Of a stretch of 64,000 nt of DNA, positions 2,745 to 61,479 are shown piece by piece. The notes beneath the pieces were generated by a model. It ran no database searches and was not told where the DNA came from. It was given only the letters and a program-made list of their open reading frames with translations. This DNA comes from Chrysomallon squamiferum (taxonomy: Eukaryota; Animalia; Mollusca). Position 1 is the stretch's first letter; each line of letters begins with the position of its first letter. A program made the position numbers and the translations under genes. Location of the stretch: contig CM022672.1 in assembly GCA_012295275.1 (NCBI GenBank), positions 17,050,001-17,114,000 on the forward strand, in the 5' to 3' direction.

Positions 2745-2825
<81 letters not shown>

Positions 2826-4638
2826 ATATTTTAACTTTTTTTATAATTTTCTAATTAAGCATGTTTCGTAATACTGTCTTGAAGAAGAATATTTGTATGT
2901 TCATTTGCTAAACCAAGACTGATTAATATAGTAATTAAATTTTCACTTTAATTCTATGGTTACTGAAGAAACTGGAAAGGTTTTTTACATTTCTTATTGC
3001 TTCTGTATCATACTTTTATGTACAAATGCACAACACATATATTAATACATGGATATATACATACTTACACAGAAGTACATACATTCCTATATATATATAT
3101 ATACATACATCTACACATATATACGTACATTTCTACACATCTTTACATTCATCTATATACACACAAAAACAGTACTTGTTTTGCTTGTCCAATTATAGAC
3201 GGATCCAGGGAGACGGATTTTGCTTAAACTGGTAGATATGAAATTAGATTGCTGGAGAAAGATGGCTTGTGACGAAGACTACATTGCTATTCGCTACAAG
3301 AGCGACCTTGCGTTACCTGGGCCAAGGTAGGTAGGCCTATTTTACAATGCAGTAAGATATCTATATATTTCGGTATTTTAATAACGACTGAAATCCTATT
3401 AGATAATGCATGGTGAGCGAATCGTGAAAAGCTTTATATTCCCTTAAAATAGACCGTTATCAATAAAGTTAATTCAAGTAGAAACATTTAAGGGCAGTGC
3501 AAATTATGTTACAGTTATTCTTATATGTGTATGTATATGGGTATATATGCATCTATATGTATGTATGCTTATATGTACTTTTGTTTATGCATGGCTGCTT
3601 GAATGGCTAATTTAAAAATAAGTTCCTTTATTTCTGTATGTGTTTAATTTGAATACAAATTTGAATCGACAGATTTTGCTGCGACAAACCAAACCATTCG
3701 TTTGTAAGCGAGGGTACGAGGATGTTGCTTATTTATCGAATAGAACAGCCTTATGCGAATCATGGCATTCGAATACAATACAAAGCAGGTGAACAAGCTC
3801 ACAATACTAAATTACGAATAACAAACCATATGGTTAATTTAATGTGAGACTTACCGATTGGTTGAACGGCAATTAAATGTTTTGTTATTGATTACGTAAA
3901 CTGGTTGAATAGGTGGTTGAATTAAAGGTTCAGTTATAAATAATTTAGCTGGGTCAGTGATTTAGAAAACTGATACGTGAATATTTAGCTCAATGCTATT
4001 TTGAATAATTTGTATTTAACTGAATAATGTGTAAAAAAATATGTAATAACTGAATGATTCATTTGACAAAAATGAATGAAATAAAGAAAATGATGGTTAT
4101 TAAACTGAAATGATCCATCATAAACCTCGCTCTTTTCACATTCTCTTTCTATCTATATCTGTCTTTTTTCTTTCTTAAGCAGATGCAAAATCATATCAAG
4201 ATATACTGGTCTAGCTGTTGCTTGTATATAATCGTAATTAAAGGATTAACCCGAATGTTTAATATCTGATATAACTCAAAGAGAACAACACCCCGAGAAA
4301 AAAAAACCCAACAACCCCCCCCCAACAAAACAACAAACAACATACCCCAACAACAACAAAAAAACAACAACAAAAAACAAACAAAAAACAAAGAACAACA
4401 CAATAAAATCATAGAAAATCTTTTACATATACAGAAAATTGTGGAGGATGTAGAGGTAAATCAAACTCTTCGCAACCACCTTGTTTGGAGACACTTGAAA
4501 AGAACTGTGATGAGTACTACACAGACACCTGCACAGACAGTCCAAAACAGTGCAATATGTAAGATAACAGTTTATATAAATTATATTTTATATCAGATTT
4601 AGAAAGGAGAATGAGAGTGAGAATCAGAAACGACAGTC

Positions 4639-4712
<74 letters not shown>

Positions 4713-5398
4713 TCCAAAGAAAGATTTATAGACAGCGTGACGTTTTTGTTTGTGTTCATAGATGTATATTTATGAATGTATGTATGTATGTATGTATGTA
4801 TGTATGTATGTGTATGTGTATGTGTTTGCATATATATATATATTTTTTTGTTTTTCAGTACAAGAAAGAATATTTGCATAGAGACTGTTAAAAAATGTTG
4901 CAAAGCATATATACTGGATGGAAAAGAATGCAGACGTAAGAAACTTTTATTTTGTCTTTAAATGGTTATTTATAATTTAGGATTATTCTTATTATTCTGA
5001 GAAAGAGAAAAGAAAGAGTGAGATAAAGATAGACCTCTTTATTTCATAACTGACATTTTATCCATATAACCTTTACGCTCACTGTGTTAATGTTATTTTC
5101 CTTTCCATTATAGCTGGAAAATGGTCCGACTGGACAACGTCTACTACGAAATGCAGCGTTACTTGTGGCAAAGGAACCATGATTGTGACAAGATCGAGAA
5201 CATGCACGGATGGACCTGGGAACTGTACAGGAAATTCTAGAGAGGAACTGAAAAAGGACTGCGAGATAAAGCCATGTCCAGGTTAGTTCCTGCTTTTTTT
5301 TCTATTGTTTTTCCATCACAAAAGAGAAAGGTATACTGTAAATATATATCAGTCATAATATTATTTAAAAAGAACATCTCACAATATAGTTTATAGTT

Positions 5399-5466
<68 letters not shown>

Positions 5467-8400
5467 TAATATGATTACAATCATATATATATATCTCTCA
5501 GTGATCATTTATGGAAATTCCTAAAATTAATAATAACATACTACGGCATTCAGAACACCCGACATATGATCACTGGCGCTTGTCATATAAAATCAGATGG
5601 TCGTTTCCAAAGGTTGTCGAATATAATGCCAAGCATGATGGAATGATCGAATAATAAGATTATCAAATTAGCAATGCGACACGTAACTGAATGCCGATTT
5701 TCATTGTGTTTACACTACAAACGAATAATAAAAAAAATAATATTAACAATTAATTAGGAAAACTAATTATTAGCTTAGTGGTAATTATATTATTAACGTC
5801 ATTTTAACCAAATTCCGAGACTCCACAGTAATTTAATTAATAAAACTAATTTATCATCACAAACAGGCCATGCATATATTGTGTTTGATGAATCAATATA
5901 ATTATCACATTAACTTGTTTTGCTTGCTTAGAAATAAATCATTGAGTATAATTATTGTGAATCATATTTGCAACCAAGTTACCAATGTTATTACGTAATT
6001 TAGGAATCTCTGTAGTGTAATACAAGACCTATAATTAGAACATTATTGAATAGCTTATTTACTGATATATATATAAATGTCAAACATCAAGCAGCGCACG
6101 TTAATCGAAATAAAACTTCAAAAAGAGGATTGCTTAGATAATTAAATTATTAAAAAATCTAACCCGAACACTGTTACAGATACTCTCAAACGTAGTCACA
6201 ACATTTCCTCTCTCCATCTCTCTCTCTCTGTCTGTCTGTTTGTCTGTATGTCTGTCTGTCTGCCTATCTCTCTACAGATAGATAGATAATAGATAAATAG
6301 TTATAGATATAAATATAGATATAGATATCACAGTAGTAATAGACACAAATATATAAATTTACACATATATTAGTTTGTCCACATTATGTATATAATAACA
6401 TTTGCTCTCCATACACACAACTATTCCATTTTTATTAATACACAAAAGCACATCGATGCGCCCATGCACACACATATTCTACTTTTATGCTTAAAAATAA
6501 CTACACACATTTAAATAATTAAACAGGCTGCACATTTGGAACAAAACAACAACAACAAACATTCAAACAAGCAGAAAAAATCGATTAAATTAAACAGAGA
6601 TCTTTTAATTATTCATCTGGTTAACATTTCACTGATAACATAATAACTGAACTTTTTACAATATTAGTTCTTACTTAAGCTCAGTTTGGAAACTAAAAAG
6701 TATTGCTTTAATCTTCAATGACTTCTAACAGATTCGCAATCTATCTGAGCTGTTTAAAAGTTTCCAGTAGTTAGAGAAAACGTAGAAGAAATTAAACGAA
6801 GGAGATAGAAAAACAAGACTATATTCTTTTTTTTTTAATTGCGTTTGATTCTAGAGGACAAAAATGAATGAAAATGATTTAGATTATATTAGATTGTAAG
6901 AATCGATTCGGATCCTAATTAAATCAAAACTTTTAATCTTAACCTAAAAGACATTGCTCTATTATTATTTACTAGAAAAATAGAAATATGAAAACATGTT
7001 CTTTATAATGTTTTGTTTGTTTGTAATTTATTATACTTGTTCTTCAGTTATTTCTTGTATGAAGATTTGACGTTTTCTCTGAAAATTAATGTGGTAATTT
7101 CTTTAGATGAATTAGTTAGTCCATGAATATTTATTTCTTTTCAATTTAGAGAATATATAGTGTTTTCATTTTTGCATATCTTTTAAATTTACTTGCATTC
7201 TTTGTTTTAGTTTCTCTATTACATTATTATGCTGTTTGCTTGTATACTAGGTACAGCTGTACTTAGGAAAAGATCCTCATTTTCCTGTTGTAAAAGGTTT
7301 TGCATAGTATTTAGAATTGTAGTTAAACATTATATATATATATTGGAAAAACCTACGTAATAATTTTTACTTGTATTAGAATTACAGTTCAGATTAATGT
7401 TGTTTTATTTTGTTCTTTTTGTTTTTTTGAAGGCATGGAGTTATAATTCCTGTAATCATATGTTGCTGTTCATATATATTTATTAATATTTATAATATTA
7501 TCACGCAGTTGTCAGTGTTATGAATGTAGTAATGATGTACTTTGTTGTTAGTGGATGGAGTATGGTCAGAATGGAAAGTTAGTTCAACCAGTAAATGTTC
7601 TGTAACATGCGGAGATGGTTTCATAAAAACTGTTCTAGAGAGAACGTGCACTGGTCCTAAATTTGGAGGAAAGAACTGTGATGGAAACACAACAATGTCA
7701 AAGTTGAAAGACTGTCACAAACGACCTTGTCCAGGTATATTAGAAAACGAAATGATTTGGTAGTTACTAGTTATTTCTTCTTTACATGTTAAAAATCAAA
7801 ATGGGGAACAAAATATCCATTTTTCTCAAGACTCAAATGATATTAAAATATTAAAATATTCAGATATCTGATTTGATATAAATATACTGAAACATGTCTG
7901 TATGTCTGTCAAGCGATACTGTCAGCCGGTTATACAGCTTCAGTTAAATCGGAAATATCACTGTCTTGAAAAAAGGTGCCTTTGTAGTCATGCTTTTAGG
8001 AGTTCTTACACAATTCAGCACAGTTAGAATCAAAGGAAATTTCTTTTAGTAATTATTAATATAGAACATACTAACACTGAAAATGTATACACATACTTTA
8101 ATACAGTTCATATATGGATCAGCTGAGTTGGAGAAAAATGCTACATCAGGTGATCTACACTCAATTTTTGGAAAATAATTTTGTTCTGCTTAATTAAATT
8201 CATTTCATTTATTTATACTGATTATATAATTAAGTTATTGATGAAAAAATATTATTAAAATATATATATATATATATATATATAACATTTATTAATCATG
8301 TAAGTGAGTAATGATGTAATAATATACGTGTTTCACAAATATGACTGGCAAAGAAGTTACGTTTTGAACTTTACATATTTTTTGACTGTTAGTTGATGGT

Positions 8401-8598
8401 GTTTGGACGAAATGGACACCAGTTTCCACTGGCAATTGTTCTGTGACATGTGGAGGTGGTACCATGGAAATAATACTGGAGAGAAAATGCACAGAACCAA
8501 AATTTGGTGGTAAAGATTGCCAAGGTGAAAGAAGAAAATCGGAAGTGAAACAGTGCAACACAAAGCAATGTCCAGGTATTAAAAAATATATATATATG

Positions 8599-8632
<34 letters not shown>

Positions 8633-9641
8633 TGTATTTATTTATGTATGTATGTTTGTATGTATGTATTTATGTATGTATGTTTGTATGCATGCATATA
8701 TTTGTATGTATATATATATTGTTTAGTATATTGTTTTTTTCTTCGTTTGTCTATTTTTATTTTCTGCTTCTTTGTCTATTTCTTAGTAAATATATATATA
8801 TATGTATATGTATGGATAAATAGATCTCTGTACATTTATTGCATGTTTGTAAAAGCACGCACACATATACACAAGCACATAAACATACATACTGTCTCAC
8901 GTTCTACCGCACAATATGATATATGGATGTATGTATATGTAGATATGTGTATGTATGAATATATGTTTATCAATGTGTTTGATTTTTTCTTTGTCATATG
9001 TACAAGCCTACACTAAATAATTATGTTTGACGCCATATAATCATCGATAAATTAGGTTTGTTTTACTTTTGTACTGTGTCTCGTTATTTCAGTTGACGGA
9101 CAGTGGGGACCGTGGACCGAATATTATTTCTGCTCAGTTACATGCGGGAGAGGCACCAAGTACATAACAAGACAGAGGGTTTGTGAAAATCCGGCTCCTC
9201 AGTATGGTGGCAAAGTATGTGACGGTGATTTTCTGCAGATAGAGAATGTAACAGATGTTTGTTATCGTGGTTCATGTGTTGGTAAGTTAATACGAACGGA
9301 TCACTGATTTGAAAAGCATTTAGATAAAAACCAGTACAAATATCTACTATTATTATTCGTATTGTGTGTTGTTGTTGTTGTTATTATTATTGTTCAAGAA
9401 ATAGCCACTTTAATAAACTGGAGACTAAGATTGGATCTTACTCTGAGAATATTTGATCAGCACTTAATTTCATTAAGACATTCGTATAAGTTATATAATT
9501 ATTACTTTAGATAATATGGATTTATGACGAAGTGGAATATGTTATATATCTGTGGTTGTCTATTTATGTGATAATGTGGACGAAGTAGACTGCGATGACG
9601 GAGTTTCTAGGGTTTCTAGAATATACACTTGTAATAGAATG

Positions 9642-12167: not shown

Positions 12168-13720
12168 AAGAAAAAAGAACAAAAAAAAAAAGAAAGAAAA
12201 ACAATAAAACATATATAAACCAGGGGGAGAATATCTGTCCACTGAATAATTGTAAACTCCAGACATAGGTAACTACATTTTTACTGCTCTGTTTAACCTT
12301 GATTTGATCATTTTTATTACGGCACTATACCAGTATTTTAGACAATGTTTGTGGTAATCGTGCTAAGTAAATTCAAGGTTTTACTGTTCTAATACACTGC
12401 AAGAATTACTCGTAGATGTGTATGGATTTAGTATTATTAGAAGTACATACTGTTTTTGAAATGTTATTACTGTAGTAATTAGTCACGCTAGACCTAATAC
12501 AGATTCAGAAATATATTGTGTTTTGTTTTACTTCTAGTGAACTTAAACCTACTAATTATAACAGTTATATATATAAATTGTCTTTGGTGACTAGTTTTTG
12601 TTCGTTATGGGTTGTCTTCTCGATTGCCAGGATGTGTTAATTTGGAATAAGTTATCGGTATCTGTTTTGTTCAGTATGACAGAGGCTTATAAAAAGGAAT
12701 GACTTTTAACTTATATGCACATGAATAAAATAAAATACGACTCAGAAAGTATTCAGCCATCATGAATGTCTTTAGAACAAATATCGTAGGAAAAATGTAA
12801 CATTAGCACTGAGGGGAATTTTTCTTCACCTGCATTATCAACCAGTCTCATCTTTGGCCAGTCAGCAAATCGCAAATCAGAATCATTTCTTGCTACAAAT
12901 ATGGACATTAATCCACTGAAGCATTACAGTAATAAGGAATACGCTTTTCGGAATAAGACAATTAGCGAGGCTCAGATGAAAAAATGTGTTGATATGCTTT
13001 CTTTCGCAGAACTTGTCGTCGCAGTCGTACGATGATACATTTTTTGCTGGGTATCGCTGGTTCTCCGCCAGAGATAGGGCTGTATCATTTTGGGGGCTAC
13101 TTTTTTTTCCCAACCGTATTCTTTCCATATCCAGAGGGCGAAAAAGGCAAAGGTGTTTCTGCAGTTTAAAATGGAACAAATAACGTCGAACTCTTTGTTT
13201 CGTATTTCGAAATTGAAAAAAACATTCTTTAAGAACACGATTAGCGAGGTCTTCGATAATATCAGGAATCTTTACTATATTGAGAGGAACTTTAGCATGC
13301 GTCGCGCTGAAAAGCTGTCACGTGCTAATTAGATGAACATTACGTGACTACTGTCGAAAGATTGTCGAGTCGTTGATTAATGACAGAGGTCTTGTGTTTC
13401 TTCTGGTAGCGTATGTATATATGTATAATTGCAAAGTATACCAGCGAACTCAAAAATCACGGACCTAAAGAAATGTAAAATGTTAAATGAGTATACCAGC
13501 CAACCGTGCGTCTGACAAATGTTAGCCAAGAAACAATGTAGACCTATTTTTAGCAGAGATAGAAAAATGTTAAAAGTTTAAATAAGACTAATTCATCGAA
13601 ACTTTTGACATTTTTTATGAGACGGTAACCACCGGTGTTATGTAAATTGTTATTTCACACAGTATAAACAGCTGATAGTTTTGCAAGCAAGTGGTTCTAT
13701 GTATGAATATTATTATAGAT

Positions 13721-14710: not shown

Positions 14711-14798
14711 ATTCTAAGTTTGAGATTTTCATGATGCATATTTCTGATATTTAAGTTAACAGTTAATATATTCACCTAATTATGTATATATTTCACAG

Positions 14799-16596
14799 TT
14801 CCTACTATATCACTGGAAGTACCTAGTCCATCATACGAGTCTAGTGGACCAGTAGTTTTGACTGCAACGAGAACAAATGGATTGACTGGAGAACTCTCTG
14901 TTGATCTTTCAATTGCTGATGTCACAGCTCTTGCAGGCAAAGATTATGTTAAACCAGATGAAGCTTTATTTGTCTTTGCAAATAGAGAAGCCAAACAATC
15001 TACTGAAATTGAGCTTAAAGATGATATGGTAAGTTAAGCGAGTTAATTTTTCTATATATGAACATTACAATTATATATTTTTCTGACAAAACAAAATCCG
15101 AAACATGGAACTCTGGTAAAATTTAAAATTGCGTACTTTGAAACCAGTCTTGAACTTCATATGTGGAAACACACTAAAACAAATTTACACAAATTTTATA
15201 CTAAACATATATTAAAAAGTACCCACTGCTGTGCAAAGAATACTATTTCTTTTGTAATGCACTAAAACATATACATCCTTTTAGAAAGATTATTTGTTGC
15301 ATTACACTAAAACTTTTGCTCCCATATACAAATATTATTACTTCTTAAAATAAACTAAATATATATTAGAATGTACCCATTGCCATACAAAGACTTTTAT
15401 CTTTTATAAAACATATACAGCCTTTTACAGAGATTATTTCTTGTAATACACTAAAATGGACTATTACTATTGCCAATAAAATTAAATAAAGAATAAAGAA
15501 TAATAAAAAAGAAGATATTTCAATATTAACTTATTACGAATCAGTCGTAAATCTTTTTATATAATGAAAATATAAAAGAGGAAACTAGATCCTACCACTT
15601 CACAGGTCAGTTAATAATAAGCCGTAGTAATTTTTGTCTGTATTAATAAAAGAAGCATATCATACAGCTGTTGGTAAAAGAGTCATTTAAAAATTGCTGA
15701 CCAAATGTTACTCTTCTATTGACTGTTTAAAATGTTTTTAACATTTGTTCATGTATGTGTTAATGATACAGAATAGTAAATAATACTTGCTTATTCAGAA
15801 ATGTTGTCTATATCCTTATCTTTATTATTCGTTTTCTTTCATTAAATAAATAATAATTTAAAACGATAATTAATAATTAAACAGATAAAGTGATCTGTGG
15901 AAAAAACCAGATGGCTATTCAAATTGATCCCTATCGTTATGAAGATACATGCACATTTGACAATTTTGCTAACCAGGAAGGGATGTCTGATAATTTTACC
16001 AGTGGGAAAGTGAAGATCATACCAAATGCTGGCACAAACTGCTTAAATGCAACATCTCTGACTACGGTATGTATATTAGAAATAATCGCATGTTCTGCAT
16101 GTTTTTGAGATGCAGACTATCTTCTACAGTGAAATGTTTTGAAATGGATGTATCTTTTTTTTTTTGAATCAGTATATAACTTAACATCTAAACCAACAGC
16201 TTGAAGCTTAGTGGATACAGCAACAGCCTAAAATATGAACGATCATTTCTCCTTAATGTAACCAATGGACTATTTGACGTTCAAACTGTTATCTCGAGGC
16301 TTCTTTCAGGATGGCACTCGTATATATTTTAATGTGTGTGGGAATGAACACTTTGTTATCTCAAGTTACTTAATGACAAATCTGCGGAAATAAAAATTAT
16401 AACAAAATCCAAATATTTTTAAATTATCATTTTATGACTTACATATTTAAATTGATGTTTCATTAAGATACCTTTAGTAATTTTAATCCAAAAACCGATT
16501 TTTGCACAATTTCAATTCATGGTTAGCGCAATATGTTCTATTGACATGACGAAAAACATCACAATTGTATCTCTAAGTCGTGTATCAGCAAGCCAG
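14799..16596 (+). pseudogene. Collapsed Calx-beta/EGF/ZP paralogue (copy A)
   Basis: Calx-beta exon 14799-15028 (VPTISLEV..IELKDDM). ZP exon ~15885-16066 lacks 30 nt (IGSFQGKVYA) relative to 37684-37895. Only the 3' half of the next ZP exon remains at ~16522-16596. Signal, EGF and all 3' exons are absent. Confidence 0.85.
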
Positions 16597-16731
16597 TAAG
16601 TTTAAATTGTTTAAAAAGTTAATATTTTAAATTAGCATTATCTTAATGATTATTCATAGCAGACACATAATTACATTTAATATAATGCATAGCATCTCAC
16701 TGTTATTAATTTATTGTCCAAGAGGAGAGAA

Positions 16732-17226
16732 ATGGATTACTACGAATTTTATGATTGGCACTGCTTGCTTCAATTTCATCAATTTGCTTCTCTTCACGAT
16801 TCTCGACGTTTTATGCCAAAATATCATTTTGATTTAAATAAAAGTAAATCATGTGAATATCAAACTTTTATTTCTATTTTCCATAATGTTGGACTGAAAT
16901 TGGTTTGTGAAGTATCTTTTGACAGAAAGAAATGTGACTGTAGAGCAACCTATGATATAGCTGGATATAAAATCAGAAAGATGTTAGATAAACTAACTGA
17001 TTGGGTTACAAATAAGAACATGGACGATGTAATGCAATATGTTTATACTCATGGACATTTACCAGATTATAGAAATGTTCAGATAGAGTTTGCATGTTAT
17101 ACAGCTAAAGCAGAAAAGTACGGACGTTGTCCATCATGCATGCCTAATTTGAGAATCTATTATCTTTCCAGAGATAGAAAGCAACAAATAATAACTTCTA
17201 ATATTTCTCAGTTTGTTCTCTTATAA
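16732..17226 (+). CDS. EVE orphan ORF, 164 aa, Cys/aromatic-rich, unknown function
   Basis: Uninterrupted ATG-TAA ORF (MDYYEFYDWHCLLQF..GRCPSCMPNL..) in AT-rich DNA, followed by AATAAA at 17287 and 17297. Confidence 0.6.
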   Translation: MDYYEFYDWHCLLQFHQFASLHDSRRFMPKYHFDLNKSKSCEYQTFISIFHNVGLKLVCEVSFDRKKCDCRATYDIAGYKIRKMLDKLTDWVTNKNMDDVMQYVYTHGHLPDYRNVQIEFACYTAKAEKYGRCPSCMPNLRIYYLSRDRKQQIITSNISQFVLL

Positions 17227-17286
17227 AATTGTCATGTGGTTTGTCAAGAAATTGACAGGACTGTTCTGTATTTGCTTTATTGCTTA

Positions 17287-17329
17287 AATAAAATATAATA
17301 AACGAAATTAAATGTTTCATGTTTTTATT
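17287..17329. terminator. Convergent polyadenylation signals between two EVE ORFs
   Basis: AATAAA on + at 17287-17292 and 17297-17302; AATAAA on - at 17324-17329. They lie between the stop codons at 17226 and 17368. Confidence 0.5.
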
Positions 17330-17367
17330 TTCATAACGTCGTTTAATTTTTACAAATAATATTTTTA

Positions 17368-18041
17368 CTACAATAATTGTAATTCTCTGATTAAATATCT
17401 TCTGAATCGAACAAATTCTGTAATTCTCTCGGAATAAATAGCCATCTCTCTAATATCATAACAACAAAAATCAATAAGAATATCAATAAGAAATCTATAA
17501 GGCATGTTCAAGTTAAAATTATTAATAGTCTCCCATATAACATCTCTATCATACAAAGCATTGGAATCAGGATTAGCATGAGTAGATATATCTAACAAAT
17601 GATTACATACTGTTCTGTAAGTATCATAATCTTCTTCATTTAAAGAGTCAGTATATCTTCCGTCGTATATCTGATCCATCTTATAGTTTCCAATATTGTT
17701 CGTCCGATAAAGACAATAGAAATAATTGTCTTTTGATAAGTCGTCTTAATCCAACGTACACTTTTAAAGAGTATATATTATACTGATAAGAATGGATATC
17801 TTGATCTTCAAGTTCTTATAGTGTAGCAGCGTCTGATGTATCTGCATATAATGCTGCACATTTAATATCCCAATTAACTCTCCATAAGGCAACAAGTTTC
17901 ATAACTTACAGGACTATCTTCTTGCCATCCAAAGTCTTTCCATTTTTCATTCCAAGTTTTATTGTATCCATATAAAGAACACGTGTGTAGGTCAGCGATA
18001 ATCTCTCTGAAATATCGATAATGTATAGCTTGATAATCCAT
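17368..18041 (-). pseudogene. EVE orphan ORF (~220 codons, disrupted), unknown function
   Basis: ATG at 18041 (MDYQAIHYRYFREIIADLHTCSLYGYNKTWNEKWKDFGWQED..). A frameshifted, stop-containing middle (WRVNWDIKCAALY..) leads into the 103-aa ORF 17679-17368. Confidence 0.55.
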
Positions 18042-18203
18042 AAATAAAATATTAACGTTTCTCTGAAAGTAAAATTAATTAAATGATGTAAATTAAATCA
18101 AATCATATATTTACATAATTTTATAAAATTATTTAAAGTAATAAATGTAATGTCTATAAATAGAAATGATGTAAGTATTACAGGATGCAGTGAAATATAT
18201 GTA

Positions 18204-20211
18204 TTACAGGAAGTTATGCAACATTAGCATTACAGGAAATTGTGAAATATTAATTAGAGTTATCCCCCTTGAGATTGCACAACACCCTCGATACGAACGA
18301 CTAGGAGTTCCAATGTGTTGATATTCGCTGTAAATCAAGTTTTCTTTTATGTGGCTGTTCTTGAAGGTGACTTCTATTCCATCATAGAATTCTAAATAGG
18401 CTTGTTCTTTCAGATCTACTTCATTCTCATTGAAATAGTCATAAAGAAAAACCCACATCTTTGGATTTGGTAACTTTGCATTTGTCAAGAAAGCCTTAAG
18501 AGCATCTCCATTTTCTGTCATCTGTAGATAATACATTCTAGACATCAAAGCTTCTTTATCAGCTAACATCTTAGCTACACATCATTTGTACACATCATTA
18601 CAGATGTTTTATGAATCACCTGTTTCTTTTTACATTTTACTTCTACAGCTACATCATTCCCTCTCAAAAGGGATTTATATTGATCTATTGTAACATCAGT
18701 GACATTACATTCGTCAACCAAAATTATTCTCTTTCTAATACAGTTATCAAAAGCAAATCGTTCATCTTTGCCAGGCCTTCCAATAGCACTTTCTGGTAAC
18801 AGTGAAAAGGGCTCTATAAACCAGTAGCTCTTTCCGATGGTTGTATATCCTCGCATGCATATACAGCTTCTTGATGTATCCATTTTTTCCAGAATGACAA
18901 GCACTTTTCCAATGATATCCATAGGGTCCAATCCAGCCAGTTCACACCAAAGGACAGAGTTGATAGCACTCTCTTCAGGTGTTGTAATCCGTAATCCATT
19001 TGGAGCACTTGTTGGTAAATCTAACTTCCTTAGATATTCGATGAAGCTTACAAAAGGTTTGTTCTTCATAGTAACCAGCAATTCTGTCAATATCCTTTTG
19101 TTACTCGCGTTCGTCTTGATGTACTTGAATCTACCAAGTTTTCCTGTTCCAGTTTTCCTGCAAATTTTGTCAGATAGATCTTTATTGGTGATACTCCATT
19201 CTAATAGTTCTTGTCCAGTTTTAGCTTCAGACTGTCCTAATAATTCTTCGATAATATCAGTTAGTTGCATCATTGTCTTTGACAACTTTAAATCGTTATA
19301 AGTTTTATCAAGTCGGAAGGTTCTTTATATCCAACAGGTTTAAATTGTTCACTGAACCGTCTGACTACTTCAATATCTCTAGACTTTTTTGGAATAGGTT
19401 CGAAGTCATCATCCTTTTCTTCCGATTCAAAGTCATCTAATGGTCGCTTCCGTTGGGTGGAAAACTCATCTTCTTCTGTAATATCTGATCCTTTTGTTTT
19501 GAATTCACTCCGGTGTTCACTCCGGTGCTCCGTATTCGTCTTCCACTGGTTCATCGAAGTCAGCTGTAACTTCTGTGTTTTCAATGCATTCTATAGACTG
19601 CATTTCTATAGTTGAATCGGCTGGCGTTGCTTTCCATAGTATTCCCAGTTCTCTGTCGTTTATGCAGAGGAATTCATATCCAAGAGATGGTCGTTTAAGA
19701 TACTTCATATATCTTTCAACAGCAGTTTCTGTACTTTAATACAGACGATAGCACTGTGTGCTGCTCTCATCATCTGTCGAAATTGCTTGTCTTGATTGAG
19801 TGAATGTCCAATCCCTGTCTTAGAACATAACAGATGCATGTGCCTATTTGGGACACATTCTCCGTTATGCACTAGAGCTAAGGATTTTCTGTTGGTAGGT
19901 AGTCCGCCCGAAGACCATTCTTCAGAGCATACACTCGTAAGGAATGTTTTGGTTTTGTTAACGAACGTTGCCAATTCTTTTGGCAAAGATCGCAATGTTT
20001 CCATCTTAGTTGACCATCTGAGTACACATCTTCTATTAACATCTTTTTGTTTGGCATACTGGGCAAAACGTCTTCCGTTTCTGACATATTTTCTCTGACC
20101 ACTGGATACAATGGGCGCAAAATAGCGTGGACAAAAGAGGTTACCAATTTGGCTATCCTTCCTGGCATTCTGAGATCTTGGTTGTAGAATAACGCTGTAG
20201 AATGCGGTCAT
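18204..20211 (-). pseudogene. NS1: Parvovirus-like NS1/Rep (HUH endonuclease + SF3 helicase), frameshifted
   Basis: N-terminus MTAFYSVILQP; HUH motif HMH at 19834-19842; (R)YMKYL tyrosine motif at ~19700; acidic linker; Walker A GYTTIGKS at 18827-18850; FAFDNCIRKRIILVDE Walker B; VEVKCK B'; MMCTN motif C; ALMSRM Arg finger. About 4 frameshifts plus stop(s), at ~19730, 19530, 19310, 18572. Confidence 0.9.
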
Positions 20212-20299
20212 TTTTAACCTTTTCCTTCAAGTTCTTCAAAGCTGAGTTCCGTCGATGCTCTTCTTTTAATAGAACTTTCTGTTCTAGTCTTCTGTGAAG

Positions 20300-20744
20300 C
20301 TAACTCCTCAAAACAGGCAGGCGATGTACACGTATGCAAGTCTCGACTATTCCGTTTTCTTGGGATCTTCCTAGGAAGTTTAAACCTCCTGGTCTACCTG
20401 CATCACCTTTTTCACCTTTACCACCTATATTACCTTGTGGTCCTCTACTACCGGTATGCCCTCTGGGACCTCTAGGTCCTTCTGGTCCTGGTGGTCCAGA
20501 TTTGCCCGGATCACCTTTATCTCCTTTATCTCCTCTGTCGCCTTTTAATCCAGGAGTTCCTTGTAATGTCCCCTTCTCAATATCAGATTGTAATCGGGAA
20601 ATTTTTTATATTCATCACATTTTGTTATTCTACATAATAAGTCTAATTCATTAGTGATATTAACCATATTAGTTTCAACCTCAGATTTTATTTTATTACT
20701 ATTATAATACAAATCTGTTGTAAATTCATTAACTTTAGTGCCAT
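20300..20744 (-). pseudogene. EVE collagen-like protein (19 Gly-X-Y triplets)
   Basis: Minus strand 20560-20390 reads GTPGLKGDRGDKGDKGDPGKSGPPGPEGPRGPRGHTGSRGPQGNIGGKGEKGDAGRP. The putative N-terminus MALKLMNLQQICIIIVI (ATG 20744) connects only via two frameshifts. Stop at 20300-20302. Confidence 0.75.
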
Positions 20745-20792
20745 TGTTCCAGAATGACGTCGTTGTGGTTACAAATTGATTAATTCAATGTA

Positions 20793-21380
20793 TCATGGTG
20801 CCCTTTTATATATTTCAGGTCGGAGAGACGGTTTATAGTTCATAGGATATGATCTAGTTGGTCGAACTTCACATAATTCAAATAATAATGTTACATAAGT
20901 AGATACACGATCAAATCGAATAATGTAGTCTTTCATATAACTCTTATATTTTTGTGTATCACTTTGACTTCTAACAAAACAATGTTGTAACGATATTCCA
21001 GGATTTCTTTCATTTTCTGCCACTGTATCTATTGACCAAAAGGAATACTCAGTTGTTATATTTACGTCATCAAACGAATGTTCTTCCATAATTATTTCAA
21101 ATCCCATATTTAATAACGAAAACGAAGAAGCATTCATAACAGCCTCTTGCCATTGTGATGGAGCTAAAGAAGCTGCTATATAATTACATGGGATAATATG
21201 AAATCCTTCATCTACGCGTTTAATATTATTAAATATATGATAATAATCGCAATTGGCATTATTTTCTATGTCATACATATATTCACGCAATACTAGAAGA
21301 AACACAAAGCGTTGCAACAAAATGTTTATCTGAGCCTGGCTAATTGAATGATTCCAAAAAGCCTTCCTTATTACTGGAAT
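20793..21380 (-). pseudogene. Parvovirus capsid (VP)-like fragment
   Basis: GFHIIPCNYIAASLAPSQWQEAVMNASSFSLLNMGFEII resembles the conserved capsid betaC-alphaA-betaD stretch (W.Y.D.N....HFSP.DWQ.L......P..M.F.I). It is far shorter than a full VP. Confidence 0.5.
20801..20812 (-). promoter_or_regulatory. Candidate TATA box of the viral collagen-like gene
   Basis: TATATAAAAGGG on the minus strand, ~57 nt upstream of ATG 20744. Confidence 0.45.
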
Positions 21381-21444
21381 GTTTTAGTGGATGAATGTCC
21401 AAATTTGTAGCAAAAAGTGATGCAGATTTGCGATTCGCTGATTA

Positions 21445-21488
21445 TATTTTAGTGTTAAATCGTTGTCATAGTTGTTTTAAATATGGTT

Positions 21489-21578
<90 letters not shown>

Positions 21579-24500
21579 TAAAATAGATAATCAACAGATT
21601 AAATGTGCCATATCCAGTTAGAAGTCACACATTTTCAGCATCTGTTTCTGATAATGATTTCGCAGTAATAAACGTAAAAAAGACTACTAGTATATTGAAT
21701 TATTGTTTAGGAACATATACGTCGTAATAAATAATTTTGGTGAGAAACTGCCCTTATATAATTTTAGCATAGCATTTGCTCTCATAATACAGATTAATGA
21801 GTGTCCTTTTTATTGTCCAGCTGTTCTCTACTTTCATCAGTGTGAATAATATATGACAAAAATAAATAATAAATAAATAAATAAATAAATAATTAAAAAA
21901 TAAATAAAATAAAATAAAAATAAAAATAACATTCAATACAAGTATTTTATTAAGCGTTCAAATACAAGCCAAACATTAAACCAGTTATTGCTTTGCAAGA
22001 CTGATCTAATTTATAACTAACTTTGCAGCCTAGCACATATGGTTACACTGACAGGATTAACAATTATTTATTACAAATTCGTCATCATCAAAGTAAATGA
22101 ATTTGCAAACTTAAAATACTGTGGAAAACTTGATACACAAATGAAAAGTATTGCTGCACTTATGTTATATATCATGATATGATGTTCGATTATATTTTGT
22201 CTAATATTCTTTGAGAATCAGCAGTCCCTGATTTCACTAATGGTTTCGATAGTTTCTGTTTTACCAGCGAGATTCGGTGATGTTCTCCGTTCTATAATGG
22301 GACTCTGTTGCCCAGCAAGATTATAACTAAGAAACATATATATTAATTAATATTAAAACAATTTTTACTGCCGGTAACTAGTTTCGAGTAATATACTTAT
22401 AAATAAAGATAATGATGTTTTTTTTAATCGAATATAATTGCTACATTTTAAGTAGTAATTGCATGCAGATGTTCTTGTTTCATTTCTATTTTTTCAGAAG
22501 TATTTAAGTGTTGAACAGTAATTTCGTTATGTAAATAATCATTTTTCAGATTAATATTTACTGACTAAATTCAGTAACAAAATAAGACCATTTCAGGGAA
22601 GATACAAACTAATATGAAAGTAGCACACTGAGAAAAAAAATCAGTGATGCAATGAACAACTCTTATGTACTAGTACTACTAATTATGTGACATTTTCATG
22701 GGTTGGATGATTATTTAAGAATTTAGAATAGTTAAATAACAGTTAATTTATCAACAGAAAAAATATCTGAAAGGCTTGGTAAATATTTCCAGTTTATGTC
22801 TCAGCAAGATAAGAATCAGCTGTATAAAAATGTAGCATCCTGAAAACAACGGGTATGGGAGAAGATAATGACCCCCACCAAAAAAGTCATAGATAATAAA
22901 TTATTTTTTATATGTTTACCGTATGCTGAGTGCGGATGACTCTCACATCTATTTACATTATAAACACAGATACAATTGTTTCATTTTATCATAATTAGAA
23001 AATAACAACACCAGCCTTTTTTTTTACAGTATTTTTGTTTATTTTTTTGTTTACAAAATGGTCAAATTAGAATTATTATTCTATCAGAAGTAGAATAAAC
23101 ATTTCTAAATGATTTCATTATAACATGAACAGATGTTGGATCACGTTCTGGGTACGTAGTGTATAACCATGTATTTAAATTACATGCTGTTTATACACTC
23201 TCTAATGGAAAATAAATTGATTAGTATTTTTTATAGAAATAAAACGTGTATGTTCTTCTGGTATCTATGAGAACAACTTATAATTTTTATATTTAACGAG
23301 AACTATTTATTCCACATATCCGCAACTTTGGTGAAAACTTACACTGATTTTTTTCAGTGTGTGTGAACAGCAATTCCAGTGTCCTGATAACTTTAGTTTT
23401 CCTGTGTAAAACAAACACTTTGCTATTCAAATCTCGGAATTCATTAATATACATTTATATAAATAAAAATACATTAATCTTTTATCACTGTTTATACTGT
23501 GTCTAATAGAAACTTACGTTATATTGGTTGTTTAGTGTTCCATTTAAAAAACATGTCAAATGTTCAGTGAGATACTTGTCTACAAGATATAAAAAGCCAA
23601 GAGGAGCAGATATAATCGAAACTAAGTTCAGATAAAAAAACAAAAAAAAATCAGTTTTAAGATGAGAGAAGACTTCTGGAGATATATTCGGGTAAAAAGT
23701 TTAAAAAATCACGGCTTTGTTTCGCAATGTTTATATTAGAAAATTAAAATAGAACAAAATAATTGAAATTGCATATTTCTAGGTAAATTTGGGCGATAGT
23801 TACAGTCATTTTACAGATCTCGACTATATCCGGGGGGAAGGCACAACGCTATCAATGTGAACGTCAAAGAACTGCTTTCAGACAATTCAGACATCATAAT
23901 AATTAAAAGGCCAAAATGGTACCCAAATTTGACTGTACGTATTTTTATTACATCTATCTAATTACTCAAGCTAAATAAATGTCAATACACAAATTTAATT
24001 TGGTAATCTGGAATTTGGTTATAGGTTTATGTAATTAATTATATTTAAGAATTATCCTTTGATGTATTTATGATTAATTTACTTATGATGAAACCAGAAG
24101 ACTTAAAATATTTTAAATGGTGTGAAGTACAATTTATTTTAATGTTGTTTTTACTATTCTATTAAAGGTATTGTAGTCTTAATTATCTTACTGGTTATTG
24201 CTTGTCTCTGATCATATCTGCACACTATAACTGTTTAATGTTATTTTGTTTTTTGTTCTAATTCAAATTAATTCAGATAATTACTTTCGGATATTCATAT
24301 AGTTGATCCCTCCATCGTCTCTCTGGTCTCTTGTTCTAGATTCATTCTGAAGATGTAGTTGGTATACAGCAGTCCTTGATCCCTCCATCGTCTCTCTGGT
24401 CTCTTGTTCTAGATTCATTCTGAAGATGTAGTTGGTATACAGCAGTCTTTGATCCCTCCATCGTCTCTCTGGTCTCTTGTTCTAGATTCATTCTGAAGAT

Positions 24501-25489: not shown

Positions 25490-27122
25490 ATTTCACATCC
25501 GTGTTAAGTTTATCTGCGTTATCGACAATAGATAATTTGAAAGTTTCTGTCTTTTCTTCATTCTACAGTATTAAAAAATATACCAGTAAAACAAAACAGA
25601 ATTACAAAATAAAAGTTACTTAATACTGTCAAAGGATATAATAATCTTTGTCTAGCAATGTATAAATTTGAGTGTCTTACAAGAAATAATAATCTTTGTG
25701 TACGTTTTATTGTATTACAAGAAATCATAATCTTTATTTAAAGAATTACGAAAAATGATCTTTAAGTAGTGTGGGTAAGGATTAGTGTATAATAATATTT
25801 GAAGACGAGTAAATTTGTTTTGGTATTTCCTCAAGAGAAGTTCAAGAATGTTTGTAATGGACGCAATTTTACATTTTACCAGAGAGTTCCATGTTTTGGT
25901 TTTGGTTTTGTCAGAAAAAAGATATAATTGTAATTTACATAGCTAGAACATTTTACCATAACTTACCATATCATCTTTAACCTGAATTTTAACTGATTTT
26001 TTTGCTTCTCCATTTTCAAACACAAATTTAACTGTATCTGGTTTAACATAATCTTTGCCTGCAAGAGCTGTGACATCAGTGATTGAAAGATCAAAGAGAG
26101 TTCTCCAGTCGATCCATTTGTTCTGGTTGCAGTCAAAACTACTGGTCCACTAGTCTCGTATGTCGGACTTGGTGCTTCCAGTGATATTGTAGGAACTGGG
26201 AAATAAATATATATGTGTGTATGTGACTATATATGTATGCAAAACGATGTACATAACATAATGTTTTATTAGGTTTGTCTTTGTGTGTCTTTATGTGTTT
26301 GTATGTAATCAAACCCACCACTAATTTATGTGTATGAGCACTTCTGTGTGTCTTGATTTCTAAAGTAAGCCCAATATTATAATGGATAACGATTACACCA
26401 GAGAGGGAAATAAAAAATGTAGATTATATTGTGTCTGTGTGTGTCACTGTGTGTATCTACATATGACTGTATAACTTTTTGTGTCTGAATTGTGTGTGTG
26501 TAACTGTAATTGACAACGTGTGTCTGTGTATATGAGTTTTTCTAACAAACATAAAATTCCTGATTAAACTCACTTCTCTTAATTTTCACTGTAATTTTGG
26601 TATGCTCAATTGCAGTGTAAGCTGGATCATTTGTAATGCTAATTTCAAAGGTTTCATCTTTCGCTTATCTCTTAAAAATAGAAACAGCATTCAAACGAAT
26701 ACTTTTAAAGACTTATTAACTACTACTACTACTACTACTGCTACTACTACTACTGCTACTGCTGCTACTGCTGTTACTACCACTACTGCTACTACTACTA
26801 CTACTAATAATAAATAAATAAATAAAACTGAAAGCAACAGTTTTCAAATCTTACTTGACATGAAAAGTATTGCATTTACTAGTGCAGCATTTCATATACT
26901 GTATAGATAATCTTCTTGCGATTTCAGTTTTTACAGAGAGACCAGCCAAAACAAAACTATTGATAAAATAGGTACAGCCGTTTTAAAATGTCAGATGTTT
27001 TTGGGAGTTCTTTAAGTTTATTCTTCTACATCTTTATACTTTCGACAGTATTTTCTACTGTCTTTTTTTATGTCGTTGCTGCCTAAATACTTTGAACGGT
27101 TTATTATTGTTATTGTTATTAA

Positions 27123-30865: not shown

Positions 30866-32316
30866 TACTCTCCCAAAAAAGAAACGCAAAATGGTTGATT
30901 TGTTAGATACCTATTGTAAACTGACACATATCAATGTACAAACTATGAATATAATGACATTTGGTTCAAACGTATAGCTTTTGTTACAGTCGCCAAAAAA
31001 CAGGTAACACAAAATAAAGGCTATGATCGTATTTATTAGGCAAAACGTCCCCGCATGCAAACCACGTTACCAGAGCATGTGCACGTGCGGCACAAGAAAC
31101 TTGAATACGAAGGTTATAAAAATGCAAGGTTTTCGAAAACTTCTGTTCGTTATTTTTGTTCTGACCCAACATCAAACAAATGCCACGACTGAGTGAACCG
31201 CAACGAAACAACGCCATCGGCCGTTTACAAGCTGGTGAAACCGTCTCGGCCGTAGCCCGGGTGTACCATGTATCCCCTAGCACTATCTTGAGATTGTGGT
31301 ATCGGTTCCAGCAACACCAAACAACATGTGACCGTCCTAGATCAGGTAGACCACCAGGGCCCATACGGGTACTTCATCTACGGGAAAGAACCACCACGGC
31401 TACCTCTACTGCTTCAGCAATACCAGGTCTGCGTAGAATATCGGCTCAGGCAGTGCGCAATCATTTACGCGAGGCAGGTATTCGAGCCTGACGGCCTATA
31501 AGAAGAGTGGTTTTGACTCAACAACATCGACGACTACGACGTCAGTGGTGTCAATTGCACACAGTCTGGCCTCAGTTACGATGGAGAACTGTCTGATTTA
31601 GCGACGAAGCTCGATTTCTGCTCCGTTGAGCTGATGGAAGATGTCGAGTTTACAGACGTCGTGGTGAACGTTTTGCTGCAAACAGCGTACAGGAAGCGGA
31701 CAGATTTGGCGGTGGTATGGGCAGCAATCTCATACACTGGCAGGACCAACCTGGTTCACATCCAAGGCTACTTAACGGCACAGAGATACCGAGATGAAAC
31801 TTTGCAGCCACATGTCGCTCCAATTATGAATAATGGTAACGCTGTATTCCAGCACGACAATGCGAGACCACATACAGCCAGATTCACATGAGCGTACCTA
31901 CACAACAATAACATTGAGGTCCTGCCCTGGCCCTCTAAATCTCCGGATTTGAACCCTATAGAGCATTTATGGGACGAGTTGGATAGACGACTGAGGCAGC
32001 ATCAACCACAGCCACAGAATCGTGTTCAGTTGGCATTATTACTATAGACAGACTGGGCCACCATTCCACAAGGTGTAATTCGTAACGTCATTACTACCAT
32101 GGGAAGGAGATGTCAGGTAGTTCTGGACTGCCATGATGGGCACACAAGGTATTGACATTATATTGTTATATCCTTGAACTTTAACCTTTTCAGTGTAATA
32201 CCATGAATATTAATGAATTGTAAAATGTGAACATTCTGCTGCTTTCTGTTGATGCATTAGATAGATATTCCCAATGTCAATAAAATCTACTTTTGCGTTT
32301 CTTTTTTGGGAGAGTA
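30866..32316 (+). mobile_element. Tc1/mariner (DD34E) DNA transposon in the intron after the signal-peptide exon of copy B
   Basis: Perfect 26-bp TIRs tactctcccaaaaaagaaacgcaaaa (30866-30891; 32291-32316), flanked by TA. Confidence 0.93.
31180..32155 (+). pseudogene. Tc1 transposase, decayed
   Basis: MPRLSEPQRNNAIGRLQAG HTH, RPRSGRP, V*FSDE, FQHDNARPH, WPSKSPDLNPIEHLWDEL, GHTRY*; several stops and frameshifts. Confidence 0.92.
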
Positions 32317-34919
32317 TATATAATTTGTTTTTGTTTTCTCTTTATTTTTTCTTGTTTTCTTGTCGTTTTTTTTGTTTGTTTTGAAACCGCAAATTCTAGG
32401 AAAAGTAAAATACTTTTATTACATTAGATGAAACTAAAACTGATAATCGGTCAGCTATCAACAACTTGATGAAATAGCGATTACAGAAGAAATGGCGGCA
32501 TCAAAACATCACGTGACTACTGCAGACATTCCATACTTTGCAATCGAGTTGTCGACGGGATTAGGTTGTTAAGTGAATTGATCTAAAAACCACATCATAT
32601 CGATATTTGAAACATTTTGTACTGGTAGTGAGCTTTTGTCAGGCATCTTTAGATATTGTTTTAATTTCACCTTAAGACACCATTTATAATAGTTTTAGTA
32701 TATATCTAAATGTTTGGACAGTAGTGTACTCTTTACTGGAGCAACCAAAAAAAAAAAAAAAAAAAAAAAAAGAAAGAAAAAATATAAATTCAACTCTAAT
32801 ATACAGTACTTAGATTTGGATAATTCAAGTATAGGTAATAAAGAAAATATATAAAGGATACTCCAACTTATTAACTTTGTTTCAGTTTGCATAATAAGTC
32901 TTAGATATTACAGAACGCAAAAACAAAATATGATATTGTACTATAAGGTAATGTTATTTGAGATGCTTGGACGCGGTGATGACTTTCCAGAGCGAAAGCT
33001 CTCGTGTAATATATTTTACCGACTGGTCGGAGTCCTGGTCGTAAATCCGCACGGTCATTAAAAAAGTAGGTAGGTAAGTGAGGAGTGTCTGTATTTTATT
33101 GTCGACAGAAACAAATAAGACAATAACACGGATAGTTAAATATATTTTGACTACTTCACCAGATATAACATTTAAATCACGTACGTCATAATCCAAACTC
33201 GCTATATCGGAACAGACTATGGGAAGAACTAAAATTTATAAAATTGTTTCTTTGTGTCAGTGCGCGTGTGCGTGTATTTTCAAAACTTATTCTAGCTTAG
33301 AAGCCATTTAACATCCTTTAAATAAATTTAGTTGAGTTTATAAAATATTTTCCCTTACCTATGTCGTTTGTTTTGCTATAATGTTTTATTTTACAATTAA
33401 TTTAGCACCTGCATATTATATGAAAGAAGGAAAGGTCAGTGTTGCAGAAGAAGACGGCAAAGTCACAGTAACAGTGAAAAGAAAACAAGGTTCTGGCATT
33501 GTCGTTTCTGCCGTTACGGTGAAATTAGATGTTGTTGAAAAAACAGCAACATCAGCTGATTATAACGTCGCTAACAATCCCATTGAAGTTCAGTTTGCAG
33601 AGAATCAGTTGGAATCTACAGTCGAAATCACAATAATAGATGACAATGTATGCATACTTAATTATATACTTGCACGAACTCATAAATAAGTTAATGATTT
33701 TTAGAAAAGAGAGGGTGTTCAAAAACAAGAAGTTTTCTTTCTAAACAAGTTGTAACTAAAATATCACGGAAACATTTAAACAGGACTTTTATTTATTTAT
33801 TTATTTATTTATTTTCATTAATTATATTATTATTATTATTATTAAAAATTTATTGTTAGTTATAGCAAAAAACACTTTTTACAATTTTACACTAAAATTT
33901 ATCAAAATATAAAATTTGAGATAAATATAGATTTTACATTTTTCTTCATAGAAAAAAAAATATTCCAAATTTTAAATCCACAGGAAAAAGAATCTAGTGA
34001 AACTTTTGAAGTGTCAATTAAATCTGATCCTCAATATGGTATTGGAACCCCAGCAAAGACTGTTGTTACGATAACTGACAACGATAGTAAGTGACGTAAA
34101 CTCATAGATTTCTAAATTAGAACATTAATTCAATGTTTATCTTATTGTTACACAATTGTTGTCATAGGAATGTGGAAAGGAAATAGAATGAATTGAATGA
34201 ATAACATCCCAGTTCCACTGTCAGAAACTGCTCTGAAAATGTCAGTGCTTGAATACTAATAGCTAGAGAAGAAACGCCACTTTTATAATTTTATGCATTT
34301 TACAAACAGCAAGGTATCTGCTCTTCCCTAAATTACTATGTGTACATCAGTATCTGTCTGCACGTATATATTTGTGTCTTTATTAATATACATCTTTATG
34401 TATTTGTTTATGTGTACGTGAACATTTGTGTGTTTTTGTATGTGTATCTATATTTATAGTTAGATAGATACATATCCCCATGGATATAGCGTATAAATAT
34501 TTAAGCTTACAGTTAATATATTCACTTAATTATGTATATATTTCACAGCTCCAATAATATCACTGGAAAAACCAAGCCCAACATACGAGTCTACTGGACC
34601 ATTGGTTTTGACTGCAACAAGAACAAATGGATTGAGTGCAGAACTCTCTGTTGATCTTTCAATCGCTGATGACACAGCTGTTGCAGGCAAAATTATATTA
34701 AACCAGATGCAGCTAAGTTTGTCTTTGCAAATGGAGAAACAAAAAAAACTATTAAAATTGAGCTTAAAAATGATATGGTAAGTTAAGCGAGTTAAATTTT
34801 CTATATATGAACACTACAATTATATTTTGTTCCGACAAAACAAAAACCGGAACATGGAACTCTGTTGTAAAATTTAAAATTGCGTCTATTGCAAGGAGTC
34901 TTGAACTTCATATGAGGAA

Positions 34920-35310
34920 ACACACTAAAACAAATATATACAAATATTATTACTCCTTGTAATACACTAAACATATATTAGAAAGTACCCACTGCTATTA
35001 AAAGAATATTATTATTTTTGTAATACACTAAAACATATATATCCTTTCACAAAACTTATCTTGCGTTACACTAAAACTAATGCTCCCATAACAAATATTA
35101 TTACTTCTTGTAATACAGTAAATATATATTAGAATGTACCCATTGCTATAAGAAGAATATTATATTTTATAATACACTAAGACAAGTACAGCCTTTTACA
35201 AAAATTATTTCTTGTAATACACTAAAATGTACTATCCCTACACAAATATTGTTATTTCTTGTATTATACAAAAACGTATACATCCCTACAAAAAGATTAG
35301 TATTTCCCAT
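34920..35310. repeat. Degenerate intronic minisatellite (tacactaaaac..acaaatattatt)
   Basis: Repeated tgtaatacactaaa motif. Paralogous arrays at ~15170-15470, 25650-25830 and 60780-60990. Confidence 0.6.
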
Positions 35311-38300: not shown

Positions 38301-38380
38301 ATTATAATCCAAAAACCGATTTTTGCAAAATATCAATTCATGGTGTCAAAAAATAATGAATAAAATAAAATAAAATAAAG

Positions 38381-38423
<43 letters not shown>

Positions 38424-38466
38424 GTAGAAGAAGAAGAAGAAGATGAAGAAGAAGAACAACAACAAT

Positions 38467-38507
<41 letters not shown>

Positions 38508-39514: not shown

Positions 39515-39563
<49 letters not shown>

Positions 39564-41248: not shown

Positions 41249-41386
41249 CATATCCTGGATAACGACCATATACCGAATAACGACCATATCCTGGATAACG
41301 ACCATATATCGAATAACGACCATATCCTGGATAACGACCATGTACCGAATAACGACCATATCCTACGTAACCGCCATATCCTGGAT
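41249..41386 (+). repeat. Coding 18/36-bp tandem repeat (HILDND-HIPNND)
   Basis: catatcctggataacgac / catataccgaataacgac alternation, ~7.7 hexapeptide units, in frame within exon 41150-41393. Confidence 0.92.
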
Positions 41387-43274: not shown

Positions 43275-43368
<94 letters not shown>

Positions 43369-43639
43369 TGAAATAATCAACATATTAAATGTTTCATTTC
43401 CAGTTAGAAGTCACACATTTGAAAATGATTTCACAGTAATAAACGAAAAAAAAATCTACTATTATATTGAATTTGTTTATGAACATATGCGAGGTAATAA
43501 ATAAATTTGGTGAGAAACTGCCATTATATAACTTTAACATAGCATTTTCTATCATAATGCAGGTTAATCAGTGTCCTTTTTATTCTCCAGCTGTTCTCTC
43601 CTTTCATCAGTGTGAATAATATATGAGAAAAATAAATAA

Positions 43640-43670
<31 letters not shown>

Positions 43671-55035: not shown

Positions 55036-55160
55036 AAAAATATATATTCCTAGTTCACTAAAACATTTTTTTATTAGAGAATGTCCTTGTGTATAAACTG
55101 GGTCGATCATTTTCCACGTACTATTCAGTGTCTACTGTACTGCAACACTGAATAAATCCT

Positions 55161-61432: not shown

Positions 61433-61479
<47 letters not shown>

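Follow-up and report, generated by a model that had tools for sequence, protein, structure and literature searches.

Parvovirus genomes canonically run from the non-structural gene (NS) to the capsid gene (VP), and PMC12115719 serves here as the source for this order and for the 9NEK capsid. In the chapparvoviruses (Hamaparvovirinae/Hamavirinae: Ichthama-, Chaphamaparvovirus) several small auxiliary open reading frames (ORFs) lie around NS1 and invertebrate fossils are known, among them 13 chapparvovirus-derived elements with auxiliary ORFs in arthropods (10.1101/571109). A lineage related to the Hamavirinae, which has two additional cassettes and has also left fossils in beetles, sets a precedent for a chapparvovirus-type VP combined with a distant NS1 (PMC13426907), long-branch parvovirus-related sequences outside the named genera occur in molluscs and other invertebrates (PMC5013282), and PmMDV makes up to eight products (PMC11357303). 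Here we describe a block of foreign DNA within a 64,000-nucleotide stretch of Chrysomallon squamiferum (contig CM022672.1; the whole stretch is called the window). The block is a heritable, decaying insertion, and we lean towards the view that it was captured once, through break repair, from an undescribed parvovirus-like virus whose gene arrangement it likely preserves.

The locus shares with chapparvoviruses a homologous N-terminal VP block and an NS1 of similar length, the HUH nuclease being seen here at motif level only, with several small auxiliary ORFs around it, but its VP-like ORF is half as long and lies upstream of NS, its helicase is neither joined to theirs nor rejected from them, and its collagen-like gene and two orphan genes, X and Y, have no counterpart among 47 reference loci. 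Comparison of 14 window pieces with a five-sequence profile of the chapparvovirus NP gene gave no match, broken alternative frames not being read through. Compared by description, the megaparvovirus SwaBA-MePV-1 and the beetle elements resemble the locus in their Hamavirinae-type VP, distant NS1, extra cassettes and partly fossil record; however, SwaBA-MePV-1 carries a PLA2 ORF, an unknown ORF, NS1 and a full VP in one direction, whereas the window has capsid-like, collagen, NS1 and X genes and a convergent Y, and the word collagen is absent from the paper describing it (PMC13426907). Ambisense densoviruses likewise have convergent units, and in our loci L118, L124 and L137 one gene stops shortly ahead of NS1 and an ORF lies across the NS1 5' end, but the convergent gene of the window is not VP and its helicase is at most 26% identical to theirs; profiles of densoviral VP, NS2 and NS3 were not matched significantly by any window piece, and neither a PLA2-bearing densoviral VP nor a superfamily 3 (SF3) helicase inside the Densovirinae clade was found. 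Hallmarks of Bidnaviridae and Polinton-like elements (protein-primed DNA polymerase, integrase, double-jelly-roll capsid) were not detected in the block by Pfam or PHROGs. The mollusc sequences and PmMDV can be likened to the element by description, for their long-branch SF3 and many products (PMC5013282, PMC11357303). Like endogenous parvoviral elements, the block is flanked by host DNA, heritable and decayed.

Parvoviral helicase and capsid pieces

The SF3 piece of the NS1-like gene matches PF01057 (E 5e-13), Rep40 of adeno-associated virus (E 2e-6) and a reference profile of parvoviral SF3 (E 1e-22), and it carries the Walker A, B, B' and C motifs of the helicase in parvoviral NS1; four further pieces carry the gene from there up to its ATG at 20211. 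Its HMH motif aligns with motif II of dependoparvoviruses (hhalign E 0.0086, probability 4.7%; 10/300 shuffles equal). The alternative-frame ORF over the NS1 5' end is reached by 8/3000 shuffles, an imperfect control inside a coding region, and has no significant homology to parvovirus reference ORFs or profiles. At 18174-18250, over the NS1 3' end by the gap before X, stand three 25-nt direct repeats with 26-nt spacing, possibly a control region.

Reference parvovirus genomes were collected by motif scans, parvoviral SF3 being present in 47 of 147 loci; their subfamily labels are presumptive, assigned from genome layout and from known motifs. The window helicase was compared with 37 references and placed in two trees, of 38 rows (10 near-duplicate rows omitted) and of 19 rows; among the references we recognised no PmMDV, hepanhamaparvovirus, megaparvovirus or bidnavirus. 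The window helicase reaches a best identity of 26% to these 37, sits on an end branch of 3.5 (38 rows) or 3.3 (19 rows), is held by no starred set in either tree and falls outside the densoviral group in both; constraining it with the chapparvovirus-type rows neither joined nor rejected it (p-AU 0.48). The most that can be said is that the helicase, parvoviral and very long-branched, lies outside all sampled groups. With the SF3 piece as query, word-based searches of proteins confirmed none of 1503 and none of 304 candidates, and the motif scans recovered parvoviruses of reference type without any close relative: parvoviral SF3 was found in 6 of 159 further loci, with L174 the only one of the six to touch the window helicase (E 0.007), and of the metagenome 8 of 64 parts were scanned.

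Searching 1.84 billion representatives with the capsid-like ORF gave two protein matches (P0001 at E 6.7e-8); two further ones were discarded as low-complexity repeats. The ORF aligns at 38% with P0005, a 369-aa cluster member that matches the capsid of Syngnathus scovelli chapparvovirus (SsChPV; PDB 9NEK, E 1.9e-4) and aligns along chapparvovirus-type VPs, and it matches a profile of such VPs directly (hhalign probability 93%, E 3e-7). The homology to VPs of the Hamaparvovirinae (chapparvovirus clade) is that of an N-terminal block, limited to residues 7-72 of 170 (43.7 bits, 0/500 shuffles equal); the last ~99 codons are open beyond it (1/3000 shuffles) but unmatched, and strands of a single jelly-roll VP were undetected beyond the same region. 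Neither Y nor X as the C-terminal half of VP, nor a compact eight-strand VP within the 170 aa, proved significant, and one long VP-collagen fusion ORF is disfavoured, since the capsid-like stop overlaps the ATG of the next frame. P0005 and P0006 are themselves full-length chapparvovirus-type VPs of 369 and 395 aa, 80% identical, each on a 160,688-nt ENA contig; they are likely endogenous copies of a related lineage, and a search with P0005 found P0006 as its sole match.

Because the helicase and the capsid piece are both parvoviral, the helicase lies far from the sampled subfamilies and a chimeric assembly is excluded, the block is best read as the fossil of a divergent parvovirus-like virus, as the initial annotation had it. 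The NS1 with HUH and SF3 domains named there holds for SF3 and, at motif level, for HUH, and the capsid-like fragment holds over the stretch of VP homology; the placement by SF3 phylogeny suggested there puts the helicase outside the densoviral group and leaves it unplaced against the chapparvovirus-type rows, in a tree with no bidnavirus NS1.

Table. Features of the foreign block and of the host sequence that received it (window coordinates)
Feature	Position	Strand	Remark
Whole foreign block	16715..21444	.	replaces ~4.06 kb of host paralog (39165-43222, including the last four exon-like frames)
Decayed host paralog, recipient of the element	14780..16714	+	Calx-beta exon (PF03160), ZP-type exons
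Orphan Y, 164 aa	16732..17226	+	ATG to stop; 0/2000 shuffles give a frame as long
AT-rich gap between converging X and Y stops	17227..17367	.	22% GC, 141 nt; two AATAAA per strand
Orphan X, broken	17368..18041	-	stop-free 3' piece 17745-17371, 125 aa; inferred start at 18041
NS1-like gene, ~670 codons	18204..20211	-	five stop-free pieces; SF3 piece 19324-18578
NS1 motif, Walker A	18850-18827	-	
NS1 motif, Walker B	18724-18710	-	
NS1 motif C	18601-18584	-	
HUH-like motif (HMH)	19842-19828	-	where HUH motif II is expected
Motif-III-like tyrosines	19711-19694	-	where HUH motif III is expected
Alternative-frame ORF over NS1 5' end	19878..20168	-	109-aa frame; position of an NS2/p15-type gene
Collagen-like gene, broken	20214..20796	-	79-aa frame 20784-20548; Gly-X-Y 20560-20381; 59-codon frame
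Capsid-like ORF, 170 aa	20793..21305	-	lacks its 5' end; similar to chapparvovirus-type VPs over 21287-21093 only
Inverted fragment of dispersed repeat	21306..21441	-	at right junction; 82% identical to 12862-13000

Replacement of host DNA at a single locus

Self-comparison of the window shows homology to a host paralog ending at 16714 (16522-16714 corresponds to 38972-39164 at 94.8% identity) and starting again at 21445 (21445-21937 corresponds to 43223-43707 at 85.5%), so that host DNA was replaced and the event was no clean insertion; these are also the boundaries first drawn for the block. The 136-nt fragment at the right junction, which is matched by other organism-A contigs and by short organism-B matches, is likely host-derived. 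Being an inverted repeat copy, it confines the virus-like part to ~16715-21305, whereas all of the block had been taken as viral. A source-like copy of the fragment lies in a long, stop-interrupted plus-strand frame at 12760-13330, for which no Pfam family was found at E 0.01 and a viral origin is possible. Stop-free frames of at least 100 aa occupy 79% of the block; the corresponding share is 7-32% in 11 further blocks of the window and never exceeds 21% in 200 shuffles. Both block ends are truncated in the fossil; terminal hairpins, reported missing at the outset, were again not found, with none of six end and intergenic segments folding better than shuffles (z -0.78 to +0.29) and no long inverted repeat pairing the ends, and Rfam gave no match over 14-24 kb of the window.

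Together, the replacement, the junction repeat and the missing hairpin fit repair of a double-strand break with more than one template. The end-joining biology that underlies such multi-template repair is established. Viral DNA would have been captured once, during repair of a break in a germline chromosome, when end-joining or template-switch repair, possibly aided by NS1 nicking, inserted an internal segment of the replicative form of the virus.

Between 55 and 96% of the block's words occur in each of seven public runs of organism A, which come from three studies, and in all five of them that were examined contigs bridge both junctions by at least 31 letters. The source sample is possibly run X1 itself; separate from it are X2 and X3, both of a second study, and X6, of a third. 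A single 4934-nt contig in X2 spans 16575-21484. Depth over the element is about that of unique flanking contigs, as for a single copy (26 vs 22-29 in X2; 11-12 vs 9-15 in X3), and two-allele bubbles within it in X6 and X7 suggest that both haplotypes carry it. The element is real and heritable, and it occupies one locus in several animals. From organism B, run X9 yielded no more than 8 short matches, which does not prove absence there.

Four of the five genes are broken, Y alone keeping an unbroken frame from ATG to stop. Among the 34 scorable of 40 single-base allele differences listed out of 149, 28 are non-synonymous, 6 synonymous and none a stop, the share of Y being 7 and 1. Without selection a ratio of about 3:1 is expected. 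The differences lie near it and look neutral, with no sign of protein selection, and the haplotypes differ by small indels as well, so the gene breaks are not all shared. As protein, the element likely does nothing today.

Native neighbours or a mosaic

The five coding units of the initial annotation stand in their order and orientation, two frames having been missed: the 79-aa one between capsid and collagen, and the 109-aa one over the NS1 5' end. The collagen-like gene named there is borne out by 20 Gly-X-Y triplets (PF01391, E 1.7e-9). We infer that the 79-aa frame, whose length is reached in 9/3000 shuffles, the triplets and the 59-codon frame that ends 2 nt before the NS1 ATG form one gene, and its protein is predicted to be a trimeric fibre or decoration. 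The stop codon of the capsid-like ORF (20795-20793) shares bases with an ATG that is in frame with the 79-aa ORF, and the latter overlaps the collagen frame; this tight packing of stops and starts suggests that the capsid-like, collagen and NS1 genes are native neighbours.

X and Y lie downstream of NS1 and are without VP homology. No stop separates the Y frame from the left junction, so Y may be 5'-truncated; no homologue was found in Pfam, PHROGs, the ESM Atlas (no usable match) or 452 ORFs of 47 parvovirus loci, and its single-sequence model is unusable (pLDDT 34). As a second HUH domain it was rejected (8/300 shuffles equal, probability 0.14%). The 125-aa piece of X is matched in length by 3/2000 shuffles; Pfam, PHROGs and the same 452 ORFs hold no homologue and the ESM Atlas none at ≥0.9, while its low-confidence helical model (pLDDT 49) has no fold match at E 0.001. 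Both AATAAA counts of the gap between the two genes are reached in 0.27% of 20000 gap shuffles, and a convergent polyadenylation region is predicted there.

In a native arrangement the source virus would have carried the capsid-like gene, the collagen-like gene, NS1 with its overlapping small ORF, and X in tandem, with Y convergent, and NS1 would have been its rolling-hairpin nickase and helicase. We offer more tentatively, as a possibility somewhat short of even, that this layout belongs to a subfamily-level parvovirus lineage of marine-type invertebrates, whose ambisense genome encodes a collagen triple-helix protein and has, ahead of NS1, a capsid-like gene of chapparvovirus type in shortened form.

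Several observations weigh against a single native genome. The 59-codon frame, reached by 206/3000 shuffles, is not significant alone; the putative HUH nuclease of NS1 is supported at motif level only; the conserved C-terminal blocks of chapparvovirus VPs are absent from the capsid-like ORF and from every other piece tested; and the capsid-like ORF stands upstream of NS1 on the same strand, the reverse of NS to the left of VP. Furthermore, other organism-A contigs match Y only at 16822-16872 or 16822-16928 and then diverge, the junction repeat means that more than one template was joined, and no relative was found with any two of these genes together, the scans giving 0/5, 0/81, 0/7 and 0/81 (viral) and 0/52 (metagenome). 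The capsid-before-NS order may reflect rearrangement at integration; neither this reversed order in parvoviruses nor a collagen-like gene in parvoviruses or densoviruses was found in the literature searched, most subscription journals being outside its reach.

A rival reading is a mosaic made at integration, in which ordinary chapparvovirus-related fragments (a VP 5' piece and an NS cassette) were joined to an unrelated Y, and perhaps X and collagen, in the order of no virus. The repeat at the right junction, a VP homology that stops at residue 72 of a half-length ORF in a non-canonical place, the partial Y copies elsewhere in organism A, whose upstream sequence differs, and the want of any co-occurrence of the genes agree with such an origin, but we hold it rather unlikely: the capsid ORF stays open for 99 codons past its homology, the frames of the capsid-like gene, collagen and NS1 are linked by stop/start overlaps, convergent AATAAA stand in the gap where X and Y stop, and one 56-nt skip is the only internal joint among those listed. 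The single accessory-rich source genome first proposed is made plausible by the gene packing and is held in check by the missing relative, the Y copies and the junction repeat; so large a gene set, called atypical at the time, is less surprising beside PmMDV (PMC11357303) and the chapparvovirus-related lineage (PMC13426907).

The other source first considered was a larger DNA virus or element with a captured NS1. In a fuller form of this reading, such a virus or a Polinton-like element would have taken up both NS1 and VP from a parvovirus, and collagen, X and Y would be genes of its own. Collagen repeats are common in the fibres of larger viruses (the PHROGs tail-fibre matches are repeat-driven) and, both ends being lost, the source could be longer; yet genes for a polymerase, an integrase, a packaging ATPase or a double jelly-roll went undetected in the block by Pfam and PHROGs, and both recognisable genes are parvoviral, which leaves this origin improbable and the earlier suggestion without positive support. 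It is more improbable still that the element was co-opted, with Y, in host-gene sense and the sole unbroken frame, under selection as a new last exon or a source of antiviral RNA. In the window the Y frame is intact, with a host exon 118 nt ahead of it and an AATAAA after it, and PIWI-interacting RNAs are described from parvovirus-like fossils in starfish and anemone (PMC6085071), but its allele differences are mostly non-synonymous and the host paralog upstream is itself decayed. An assembly chimera or contaminating free virus, for which the surrounding microsatellites and paralogs might speak, has a negligible chance given the bridged junctions, the contig across the whole element, the broken genes and the two-allele bubbles.

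Host surroundings and significance

The window is microsatellite-rich, at ~29% GC, and its spliced exons encode TSP1, EGF, Calx-beta and ZP-like domains, a content that points to an animal, likely an invertebrate and putatively mollusc-like. A Calx-beta/EGF/ZP(cuticlin)-like/transmembrane gene is present in at least four paralogous copies, complete or partial, in both orientations (14780-16714, 25800-26300, 33336-41988, 48970-49376 and 55152-63610), and at least two look decayed, the element-bearing copy through deletions and another through a 1-nt gap in its exon at 34.5-34.8 kb. Compared with the copy at 34.5-39 kb, the EGF-exon stretch is missing from the recipient, an exon is shortened by a 30-nt deletion, and of one exon the 5' half is gone. 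A host exon of the C-terminal region of a paralog (41154-41408) contains an 18/36-nt tandem repeat encoding a D-N-D-H-rich repeat. Elsewhere, exons of an EGF/CUB-like/TSP1-repeat gene (2064-9304, plus strand; TSP_1 by Pfam) presumably resemble astacin-family proteases, a decayed Tc1/mariner-type transposase lies at 31165-32044 on the plus strand (HTH, and DDE_3 at E 8.6e-14), and a GC-richer stretch (51400-52900, ~40%) has several frames of 60-120 aa with no Pfam match in six frames.

Fossils of parvoviruses, and relatives of chapparvoviruses with many accessory genes, were known already; the collagen-like gene and the capsid-before-NS order are what we did not find in the literature. As a host trait the element looks inert. 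Viral DNA here stands in for 4 kb of a host paralog, which would make the locus a clean case of capture by break repair. The relationships of parvovirus subfamilies rest on ~150 helicase residues and few invertebrate lineages; to these the fossil contributes a helicase on a very long branch that is linked to a capsid piece of chapparvovirus type and, if the reading of the host is right, comes from outside the arthropods. Should the proposed native layout be true, parvoviruses would gain a trimeric fibre gene, none having been found described in the literature searched, and if the gene order is native, both the gene repertoire of parvoviruses, through a collagen repeat and two orphans, and their layout would be extended.

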